From Escherichia coli (GTDB lineage: Bacteria; Pseudomonadota; Gammaproteobacteria; Enterobacterales; Enterobacteriaceae): a DNA stretch of 64,000 nucleotides. The stretch is from assembly GCF_013315695.1 (NCBI RefSeq), contig NZ_CP054353.1, one strand, 5' to 3'. Positions 33,505 through 37,808 of the stretch are shown piece by piece. The notes under the pieces are model-generated. The model was not told where the DNA came from and did no database searches. It worked only from the letters and a program-made list of their open reading frames with translations. Numbering within the stretch: position 1 is the first letter of the stretch; the number at the start of each line of letters is the position of its first letter. Position numbers and translations under genes: made by a program.

Positions 33505-33775
33505 GATGTTACCGTAGTATGTGAGTACCCATCGAATAGACACCAAGCAAAAAAGCTCCCGAAGGAGCCTTCATTTTCACTTTTTTAAATCCAACGACAG
33601 ACGGCTGGCATTTAAGTATTGTGAAATATTATCAAATGTAATCATCATTGATTTACAAAAGATACATTTTGCCCCGAAAGGATTCATGTCAGAAACATCA
33701 AAAGATGATGTTCTATACTGGGAACCATGACAACACGGGCATCTAAAGTGAATATGGTTTGTAATATTGTCTACC

Positions 33776-33988
33776 TCAAAGCGCCACTACATGAACAGCG
33801 GCAGGACCTTTAGGTCCGTTCTCAATACCAAATTCAACTTCCTGATTCTCAGTTAATGTTTTGAAATCGTTGCTCTGAATTGCTGAGAAATGGACAAACA
33901 CATCTTTGCTGCCATCTTTCGGCGTGATGAAACCAAAACCTTTTTCAGGGTTAAACCATTTCACTAAACCAGTCATTTTGTTAGACAT
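33776..33988 (-). CDS. cspI: cold-shock protein CspI
   Basis: 70 aa; [38 protein letters not shown]... (CSD fold). Confidence 0.9.
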
Positions 33989-34353
33989 AATTATTACCTT
34001 TTGAAGAAATTAGCCCTTGGGCAGAATGGTCCGAAAAAAAATATCAGAGAGAAAAACCAACAAGGAAATCTCAAGAGGTACAAATAATAAAATTATAACA
34101 ATGACTGCTTCAGATAAATTTGTAACAAACCAGAACACCATTAACGCATGATTAACCACCCATAGCAAGGATTACTTTTGTAAAGAAAAACACAGCAATG
34201 AAAGAATAGCTTTATTTATTAATAAAACGTGTCATTCTGATTAAGACCTTTTATCTTACCCTTAAGATTTCAGGAATTTTGGCTCATGGAAGAGTCCTTT
34301 TTATTTAAATTTTACATTCCGCGATGTAAATGTTCCGATTTAATATTACCCTA

Positions 34354-35373
<1,020 letters not shown>

Positions 35374-35377
<4 letters not shown>

Positions 35378-35685
35378 AGATATTTATGATGAGGACGCTC
35401 GTGCTTATTGGCAGGATTTTCAATCTTAAAGGAGTACTGATGCTGCAGATAAGACTCAACTTTTTCTGACAATTTTTCTGCTACTTCCAGGAAGACTTGC
35501 CGGACGCTCCTTCTGGCTGCTGCCTCATAAAACTCCAGCGCAGCTCCTTCAACACGGTCCATGGCGACATCCAGGTCAAAAATTTCACCGTCAAAGCGTT
35601 CTTTGTCCTGTAAGGCTACAGTTACCGTAACTTTATTCTCAAAATTACGGACTCCTTTCACAACCAGTTCATAGTCTTGAGTCAT
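35374..35685 (-). CDS. ydfR: hypothetical prophage protein (YdfR-like)
   Basis: 103-aa ORF between holin and endolysin; name by synteny. Confidence 0.55.
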
Positions 35686-35689
35686 TGGA

Positions 35690-35905
35690 TTACTCTCCTC
35701 TCGCAGCCTTACGCCTGTCTTCTTTAATCTTGAAATAAAGATTTGTCAGATACGTCAGCAGGCCAAAAACCAGGCTACCCAGCACACCGATTGCAGCCCA
35801 CTGTGACGGAGTTACTTTATCGAGTAACTGCAATGCCCAGAAACCAGCATTACCCGCCGATGTGCCATAGGCAACACCTGTTGTTAACTTATCCATTGAT
35901 TTCAT
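35690..35905 (-). CDS. essQ: holin (two-TM, pinholin-like)
   Basis: 71 aa from [28 protein letters not shown]...; charged C-terminal tail [13 protein letters not shown]. Confidence 0.8.
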
Positions 35906-36124
35906 ATCCTCACCCCGATGTACACGGATGGTGCAATATGTTTGAAAAGCTCGGAGTCTACGGGGTAGTTTTGACAGCACACGTTGTTCTCAACGGCGCT
36001 AAAAAAACATACACATTAAAAATGTGGGTAATTATTTTGAAAGAAAGTCATATATAAAATAATAATACGAGAAATGTTTTCATATTTAGTGTACTGTATA
36101 CGGCCATTTATACAGGAAAAGCCT

Positions 36125-36295
36125 ATGTCAGAACGTAAAAACTCAAAATCACGCCGTAATTATCTCGTTAAATGTTCCTGCCCAAACTGCACCCAAGAGT
36201 CAGAACACAGTTTTTCAAGAGTACAAAAAGGTGCCCTTTTGATCTGCCCTCATTGCAACAAAGTATTCCAGACAAATCTTAAAGCTGTAGCCTGA
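36125..36295 (+). CDS. small zinc-ribbon protein
   Basis: 56 aa from MSERKNSKSRRNYLVKCSCPNCTQ...ICPHCNKVF; two CxxC pairs. Confidence 0.4.
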   Translation: MSERKNSKSRRNYLVKCSCPNCTQESEHSFSRVQKGALLICPHCNKVFQTNLKAVA

Positions 36296-36658
36296 TTGAT
36301 TTTATTAGTAACAAGTATTTTTTATATTTTAATAATATATTTAAAGCAGATAATAAAAAACCCGCCTGAGCGGGTTTGAGATTGTGGTGCTTTTTGTGGG
36401 AGTCATCCACTTACGCACTTTGTTTTGCCATGCCAGCAGTTAGCTTCTGCTGTAAAACTATTCATGCAGCAAACCTGCACTTCACCACAATGGTTAGCAT
36501 ACTTTTCCTGATTAAGATTTTGCCAAATATGCTAGCCATTGTTTCATGTATTGGACCTCCTTACTTTTTATTAAAGAGATCCAATATTCACTACTCTGTC
36601 CGTATCTCTACTCAGGCATCAGCCTTCTTCGTTATCGTATACAGACGAGCGATGAATT

Positions 36659-36874
36659 TTAATCAGTAATGATGACATTTGCTGCTGCAGGACCTTTAGC
36701 ACCACTCTCTATAGAGAAGGTAACCTTTTGACCTTCAAATAAGGTTCGATAATTATCATTCTGAATCGCAGAAAAATGCACAAACACATCTTTACTACCA
36801 TCAACAGGAGAAATAAAGCCGAAACCTTTATCAGCGTTAAACCATTTTACTAAACCAGTCATTTTATTTGACAT
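36659..36874 (-). CDS. cspB: cold-shock protein CspB
   Basis: 71 aa; [34 protein letters not shown]... Confidence 0.9.
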
Positions 36875-37174
36875 TCTACATTCCTTAACTTGAGCCTTTC
36901 GGCATAAATGGTTTGCATAACAGAAACGACTTCGTACTTAATTGGAGAGACTCAAAGAAGGAATAAGTGAATAACACCTGAAATGAGAACTGCTTTAGTA
37001 AACTACTTCGTATATCGTCTGTTCTTCAAACCGACGCAATCATTAACGCATAGTTGAACATATGAAGCAATGTTTATTTTAGACATCCAGCCATCTTCAA
37101 CCCCATCAAAAAACTATAGCTTTCTTCAGGAACGTGTGTATAGTGCGCCAAGTTATCAGTATTAAGGAATTTTT

Positions 37175-37387
37175 TTGTCCCGCAAAATGACAGGAATTGT
37201 CAAAACCTTTGACGGCAAAAGCGGCAAGGGTCTTATCACCCCATCCGATGGTCGTATCGATGTCCAGCTTCATGTTTCAGCGCTCAATCTCCGCGATGCA
37301 GAAGAAATTACCACCGGATTACGCGTGGAATTTTGCCGGATAAATGGTCTGCGTGGCCCTTCAGCTGCCAATGTTTACCTTTCATGA
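37175..37387 (+). CDS. cspF: cold-shock-like protein CspF
   Basis: 70 aa; [37 protein letters not shown]... Confidence 0.85.
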
Positions 37388-37808
37388 GCTATATTAAAGC
37401 TTTAATTTCAGGCCCCATCGGATCACACATGGAGAGTTTTTATGAATAACCCCGTCTGTCTTGATGACTGGTTGATTGGCTTTAAAAGCTTATGCTGTAC
37501 TTTGGCCGTAATAGCTCTGCTAATAATATAATAAGCAGACTCATTGTGTTTAGGGACATTGTACTGGAAGAAAACATTTTAAACATCAGGCAAATAACCA
37601 AGTCACCAGCTAAATAATAAGTTAACAGACATGAGTCCCGGGATGAGATTCAACATTACCATTGCCCCATTTAAAGCACAAAACCCGCTCATCAGCGGGT
37701 TTTCTACTTTTTCTTAACGTCGGGTATACAAAGCCCATCGTTGAAAAAATTTTATCCATATTTTTTGAAAAATGCAAACATCATGTCGCCATCTTCAGCA
37801 AAAATCAT

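Follow-up and report, generated by a model that had tools for sequence, protein, structure and literature searches.

At positions 36125-36295 on the + strand, the window (the whole 64,000-nucleotide stretch analysed) holds an open reading frame that, read from the sequence, consists of 56 codons plus a stop, from an ATG at 36125-36127 to a TGA ending at 36295. Its neighbors are the essQ holin gene (35690-35905, - strand) on one side and cspB (36659-36874, - strand) on the other, and it runs antiparallel to these two genes. The encoded 56-amino-acid protein, MSERKNSKSRRNYLVKCSCPNCTQESEHSFSRVQKGALLICPHCNKVFQTNLKAVA, is basic (pI 9.6), with six Lys or Arg among residues 1-16, and contains two histidines and five cysteines, three of them in CSCPNC (C17, C19 and C22) and two in CPHC (C41 and C44). 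The original prediction had described a 56-aa frame with two CxxC pairs, a basic N-terminus and an orientation opposite to that of its neighbors, all of which we confirmed. It had also noted no annotated gene at this place, which proved mistaken, as the RefSeq CDS WP_211180497.1 of K-12 MG1655 (ynfU, locus tag b4776, "putative zinc-binding protein YnfU") has exactly the same coordinates, strand, and length. The protein scores 107.3 bits against Pfam PF23499 "YnfU" (cutoff 27) and 79.4 bits against NCBIfam NF038384 "YnfU family zinc-binding protein" (cutoff 36). The gene order in K-12 MG1655 (cspI, rzpQ, rrrQ, ydfR, holin, ynfU, cspB, cspF, the Q antiterminator gene, ydfU, rem, hokD, and relBE) is that of the Qin prophage and, with identical coordinates and sequence, the ORF is the founding member of the PF23499/NF038384 family itself. 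Of 5426 complete E. coli genomes, 1652 contained a match to a 501-nt query around ynfU, with an identity that was almost always ≥99%, and a ynfU annotation lay beneath the match in 24/24 full-length records among the matches listed.

Frames of this length arise readily by chance in the window, where the six frames contain 202 ATG-initiated ORFs of 56 aa or more, and two CxxC motifs are found in 3 of the 188 ORFs of 40-80 aa. These rates leave the sequence alone undecided as to whether ynfU is a gene, and we accept it as one on the basis of its conservation, the purifying selection acting on it, and published translation data. A word-indexed search of 5.8 billion proteins returned 49 relatives of YnfU, all of them enterobacterial or on likely mis-binned contigs, and a profile search run exhaustively over 1.84 billion representatives yielded just 44 matches. 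Four contigs from assemblies labelled as Bacillota, Flavobacterium, or "Proteobacteria" MAGs (L038, L044, L064, and L079) carry ynfU and csp islets of enterobacterial type, and are probably mis-binned enterobacterial DNA instead of true occurrences outside the family. Scanning one genome per species yielded 62 ynfU loci, in Escherichia, Citrobacter, Klebsiella, Raoultella, Enterobacter, Kosakonia, Kluyvera, Lelliottia, Leclercia, Atlantibacter, Phytobacter, Silvania, Yokenella, Pluralibacter, Superficieibacter, and Franconibacter. The gene is intact in about 60 species of Enterobacteriaceae and is 51-60 codons long at essentially every locus, apart from two that are truncated where their contigs end and one whose N-terminus is altered.

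Across these species, the invariant positions of YnfU are C19, P20, C22, C41, P42, C44, the stretch S26-E-H-S29, R32, K35, G36, and L39. The conservation of ORF and cysteines, whose loss would have spoken against the original prediction, was retained for the frame and for four of the cysteines in about 60 species, and C19, P20, C22, C41, and C44 are constant throughout 40 species-level and 11 distantly related sequences. The median dN/dS was 0.107 (~0.11) by the Nei-Gojobori method on 58 distinct sequences and stayed below 0.5 in 99.7% of usable pairs, with synonymous sites saturated in 990 of 1653 pairs. Variability at codon positions 1, 2, and 3 was 0.19, 0.09, and 0.41, and all frames other than that of ynfU were closed in 72-75 of 75 loci. 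By these sequence measures, ynfU is protein-coding and under strong purifying selection. The distant relatives are proteins of 53-63 aa with 25-42% identity that keep the ribbon core and lack the basic tail; like YnfU, they are uncharacterised, and their chromosomal contexts differ, mostly without an adjacent gene for a cold-shock-domain (CSD) protein, although one has a CSD gene paired with a YmcF-like gene at 2 kb.

ynfU was discovered by Weaver et al. in 2019 (bioRxiv 10.1101/511675) using Ribo-RET, in which ribosomes are profiled at stalled initiation complexes, and the protein was confirmed in the same study by chromosomal SPA tagging and western blot. Its level was the highest among the newly identified small proteins, it was abundant at 37°C and expressed in a lysogen, and the authors pointed out its two CPxC zinc knuckles and found by threading that it matches the zinc domain of Pseudomonas aeruginosa PA0128 moderately well (10.1101/511675). 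In 2025, PIRT-Seq independently detected ynfU as protein-coding (PMC12350097). The profiling data that the original prediction had called for are thus published and positive, and its option of a spurious ORF is excluded: that a chance frame in an AT-rich spacer, one of the 202 of comparable length, would show this conservation, a dN/dS of 0.11, invariant cysteines, and a conserved Shine-Dalgarno sequence, together with a Ribo-RET start peak, a western signal from the tagged protein, and detection by PIRT-Seq, is next to impossible. Its other option, a small regulator, may hold. ynfU is an already known gene, annotated since its discovery in 2019 and experimentally confirmed, and as gene discovery our analysis brings nothing new, since translation had been established by two independent methods. 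Other literature that mentions ynfU repeats the zinc-binding label or lists the gene as a neighbor only, and we found neither an assigned function nor a test of its response to cold in the searched literature that mentions it. What remains of value here is the context of YnfU, which was the most abundant of the small proteins newly found in the 2019 screen and belongs to a family with no assigned function.

The AlphaFold model of YnfU (pLDDT 75.9) has four strands and places the knuckles at residues 19-22 and 41-44: a strand at 14-18, the C19/C22 knuckle, a strand at 25-29, a short helix at 30-35, a strand at 38-40, the C41/C44 knuckle, and a strand at 47-49. Both ends are disordered tails, the N-terminal one rich in Lys and Arg. 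Every fold neighbor of the model is a zinc ribbon and no specific structural relative was found for it, leaving a plain four-stranded ribbon. C17 is substituted in two species and in all distant relatives, and H43 also varies; the replacement of C17 indicates that the two CPxC knuckles, C19-P-N-C22 and C41-P-H-C44, supply the zinc ligands. According to the model, the core of YnfU is a single C4 zinc ribbon that is predicted to bind zinc, and the zinc-ribbon reading of the original prediction finds support both here and in the PF23499 and NF038384 matches.

The presence of five cysteines and two histidines in a protein of 56 residues, and the "metal binding" label repeated in the secondary literature, could also suggest that YnfU handles metal for its own sake, as a zinc buffer or a zinc-responsive switch with no macromolecular target. 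However, the invariant residues build one structural C4 site while C17 and H43 vary, the conserved surface (SEHS, R32, K35, G36, L39, and F48) exceeds what chelation needs, and zinc-homeostasis genes are not linked to ynfU in the loci examined, making this reading very improbable.

Upstream of the gene, a Shine-Dalgarno sequence, AGGA at 36114-36117 (+), was read from the sequence 7 nt 5′ of the ATG, and CAGGA is almost invariant in 50 aligned ynfU leaders. About 60 nt 5′ of the ATG are kept in all genomic contexts. The alignment of the 50 leaders revealed a candidate promoter at 36069-36105 (+), with a -35-like GAGAAA (36069-36074), a 17-nt spacer, a -10-like TACTGT (36092-36097), and CC at 36104-36105. 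For the -10-like box the consensus is TATGGT, of which T, A, G, and T do not vary among leaders drawn from different contexts. We infer that this box is the candidate promoter of ynfU, in which case the CC would mark the transcription start and the 5′ UTR would be about 20 nt long. A generic sigma-70 scan misses the conserved box and picks instead a non-conserved candidate at 36037-36066 (+; TTGAAA-18-AATAAT, 10 of 12 consensus matches), which is confined to E. coli-type sequences and absent from more distant loci. Such sigma-70-like sites numbered 4, against 3.3 expected by chance, so that a match alone is weak evidence. Since ynfU keeps its own leader and Shine-Dalgarno sequence across contexts, it appears to be a self-contained unit.

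Two further readings of the leader were rejected. A palindrome, CTGTATA-N8-TATACAG (36094-36115), overlaps the Shine-Dalgarno sequence and could have formed an RNA thermometer or hairpin; nevertheless, RNAalifold found no conserved pairs in the 50 leaders, and the local fold was no better than that of shuffled sequence (z = -0.47). An N-terminal extension to 73 aa from the in-frame ATG at 36074 was discarded because the region carries compensating 1-nt indels and no conserved upstream start codon, and it is also disfavored by the annotated start at 36125, which originally comes from Ribo-RET.

Downstream, a terminator scan and RNA folding placed a GC-rich hairpin, AAACCCGC-CTGA-GCGGGTTT, at 36358-36377, where ynfU and cspB converge. 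A full T-run follows it on the - strand, where it would terminate cspB, and the + strand has only TTTGAG; the hairpin is probably a shared bidirectional terminator, strong for cspB and weaker for ynfU. A Raoultella locus (L021) has a similar hairpin in the corresponding place, between its ynfU and cspB-like genes. We also observed that the cspB stop codon is separated from this terminator by about 280 nt (36378-36658, - strand), a gap with a weaker terminator-like site at 36480-36464 and only 25-aa ORFs, and that phage PHB10 has a 41-aa ORF annotated at the equivalent place (L004, 4234-4359). The gap may be a long cspB 3′ UTR, or it may hold an unannotated small RNA or small ORF.

The neighborhood that recurs around ynfU is one of cold-shock genes. 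At 45 of the 62 species-level loci, ynfU has a CSD gene no more than 600 bp away, and at 50 of them there is, within 1.1 kb, either a CSD gene or a small gene linked to cold shock (YmcF/YnfQ-like, YnfN-like, YnaE, or GnsB). By comparison, 514 kb of distant flank (>1.5 kb from ynfU) contain a single further CSD gene. Clustering of the outer flanks resolved 26 distinct contexts, and ynfU was paired with a CSD gene in 20 of these, indicating that the pair moves as a module. The commonest layout is that of Qin, with ynfU convergent to a cspB-like gene and followed by a cspF-like gene on the same strand as ynfU, often with a ymcF-like or ynfN-like gene upstream. In the window, this trio is completed by cspB with its cspA-type thermoregulator leader (36643-37035, - strand; Rfam RF01766, 158.8 bits, E = 1.6e-42) and by cspF (37175-37387, + strand), as annotated, the trio being repeated in many species-level loci. 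RF01766 also matches the cspI mRNA at 33749-34134 (- strand; 112.8 bits), indicating that both prophage csp genes retain the full cold-sensing leader. At ynfU itself, there was no match to this thermoregulator.

Linkage to the lysis cassette is far rarer, as a homologue of the EssQ holin, the RrrQ endolysin, YdfR, or Q lies within 2 kb of ynfU in just 5 of the 62 loci. Many sites are plainly non-prophage: in Kluyvera, the islet adjoins thrS-infC-rpmI-rplT-pheST; in Lelliottia, it lies between liv transporter genes and uvrC; and in Klebsiella, it is found beside metabolic and PTS genes. To view ynfU as a lysis-region gene, as originally proposed, is therefore misleading, since in most species it is found outside prophages and next to cold-shock genes. 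We conclude that ynfU is part of a mobile, AT-rich csp islet (with cspB/cspF/cspI-like, ymcF/ynfQ-like, and ynfN-like genes and gnsB) and is not a component of the lysis cassette. In E. coli, lambdoid phages of the Qin type carry the islet in their late region as moron cargo, and in most other genera it occupies ordinary chromosomal sites. The GC content of the ynfU-cspB-cspF block in the window is 0.31-0.40, against 0.46-0.51 in the lysis and Q genes. The stretch at 35900-37100, with ynfU, cspB, and the cspB/cspF intergenic leaders, was likewise seen to be AT-rich and moron-like in composition.

Among phages, the Qin arrangement is kept in HannyBb, Tritos, 2H10, PhiR42_1, and PhiR63_1. In Klebsiella phage ST13-OXA48phi12.4, ynfU is divergent from a different holin gene and has no csp gene with it, and in PHB10 it is found with csp genes and remote from the lysis genes. 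A separate observation concerns HannyBb (L002, 4585-7350), where about 20 tiny ORFs of 30-55 aa, all annotated as "hypothetical protein" on one strand, extend from ynfU/cspB/cspF to the Q antiterminator gene; this row looks like an over-annotated non-coding stretch, possibly a tRNA or repeat region. A service to the phage could be read from the 220 bp that separate ynfU from the start of the divergent holin gene in E. coli, from its equal placement in HannyBb, Tritos, 2H10, and PhiR42_1 and its position beside another holin in ST13-OXA48phi12.4, and from its expression in the lysogen (10.1101/511675): either the protein, or transcription of ynfU opposed to the Q-dependent late transcript immediately upstream of the holin gene, would tune late or lysis genes, or YnfU would have a lysogen function such as superinfection exclusion. 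However, at 57 of the 62 loci neither a lysis gene nor a Q gene occurs within 2 kb, and purifying selection on YnfU stays strong at non-prophage sites such as thrS-infC-pheST, liv, and PTS. Moreover, no family of the PADLOC-DB defence models matched YnfU at E ≤ 0.1, and PHROGs gave weak matches only (E ≥ 0.002), to families of unknown function. Taken together, a phage role is improbable.

In Qin, the cold-shock genes form two half-clusters (gnsB-ynfN-ynfR-ynfQ-cspI and ynfU-cspB-cspF; window 33700-37400) with the lysis cassette at 34401-35905 between them, while in Citrobacter sp. On2M (L020, 4600-6600) gnsB, ynfN, ynfQ, cspI, ynfU, cspB, and cspF follow one another without any lysis genes in between. 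The lysis cassette may have broken up the islet, or the islet may have been put together around it, or else the chromosomal islets may be what is left of decayed prophages. Of the genes in the first half-cluster, YnfR (PMC6001520) and ynfQ (PMC11228462) have been reported to be cold-induced.

Overall, we put at about 90% the probability that the ORF at 36125-36295 is the genuine gene ynfU (b4776), which is translated, is under selection, encodes a basic zinc-ribbon protein, appears self-contained, and resides in a mobile csp islet as opposed to a lysis cassette. This context, in which the gene travels with cold-shock genes in at least 20 settings, shifts the search for the function of YnfU from phage lysis toward cold-shock and RNA-chaperone genes. 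The linkage may be unreported, as far as the searched literature shows, and is a modest lead. It may also reflect co-mobility on one islet rather than a shared function: ynfU is convergent with cspB and so the two are not an operon, ynfU has no thermoregulator, YnfU is abundant at 37°C, and the distant relatives mostly have no CSD gene next to them.

We tentatively propose that YnfU binds nucleic acid, with RNA or the ribosome as the likeliest target, as an accessory of the Csp RNA-chaperone network, a reading that we hold at well below even odds. The basic tail and the surface of the ribbon, including the invariant S-E-H-S strand and R32/K35, would contact RNA or the ribosome, and the protein would be made at 37°C from its own promoter, possibly with extra regulation in the cold. 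A comparable share of our expectation goes to functions outside those considered here. A closer partnership with the neighboring CSD proteins, in which YnfU would act as a separate zinc-knuckle module on RNA or the ribosome with CspB/CspF-type proteins, and in which the islet would be a mobile cold-adaptation cassette spread by lambdoid phages, is an unlikely extension that draws on analogy.

Several known systems resemble YnfU in part. Its best Foldseek match is the N-terminal ribbon of PhnA/YjdM (PF08274; P. aeruginosa PA0128, PDB 2AKL), also a small C4 ribbon, with an E value of 0.83 and a PF08274 score of 22.4 bits, under the Pfam gathering cutoff of 30.8. PhnA/YjdM has a C-terminal PhnA domain, whereas YnfU does not, and the likeness is one of fold class only. 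The DNL zinc finger of the Hsp70 escorts Tim15/Zim17/Hep1 (PF05180) has a knuckle pattern like that of YnfU, C-x2-C-x3-S-x-H ... K-G-x2-L-x-C-P-H-C, and Tim15 is the best profile match in the PDB (E = 0.013), sharing the similar C..C-x-S-x-H-S...KG..L..CPHC. Along with the high rank of LysW ribbons among the fold matches and the expectation of Weaver et al. (10.1101/511675) that most small proteins work by binding larger proteins, this raises the possibility, which we think only slightly less likely than RNA or ribosome binding, that YnfU is a protein-binding small regulator or adaptor with no nucleic-acid binding, for example an Hsp70-type escort like Tim15/Hep1 or a carrier or adaptor like LysW. 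The match of YnfU to Pfam zf-DNL is weak, and reached neither the gathering cutoff nor a significant structural match.

Closer to the RNA or ribosome binding proposed here, the ribosomal proteins L44e/eL42, L37Ae, and S27e and the Methanosarcina 70S zinc-finger protein 9O17_AZ are, like YnfU, small and basic, each with one C4 ribbon and with basic tails that are disordered, and the sequence and fold matches of YnfU to ribosomal or ribosome-associated ribbons were weak and not significant. The YmcF/YnfQ-like cold-shock small proteins (PF23641), also small and Cys-rich (CPCC...CxxC), are common neighbors of ynfU in the same islets; a paralogy between the two was rejected by profile-profile comparison (hhalign probability 1.4%). 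Lin28 and the plant CSPs are eukaryotic proteins in which a cold-shock domain and CxxC-type zinc knuckles act on RNA. In these proteins, knuckles of the retroviral CCHC type share one polypeptide with the cold-shock domain, whereas at the ynfU locus the CSD and knuckle parts are encoded by separate, convergent genes that are not co-transcribed and have no sequence relationship to these proteins, and YnfU with its CSD neighbors could at most be a split counterpart of them, by functional analogy only.
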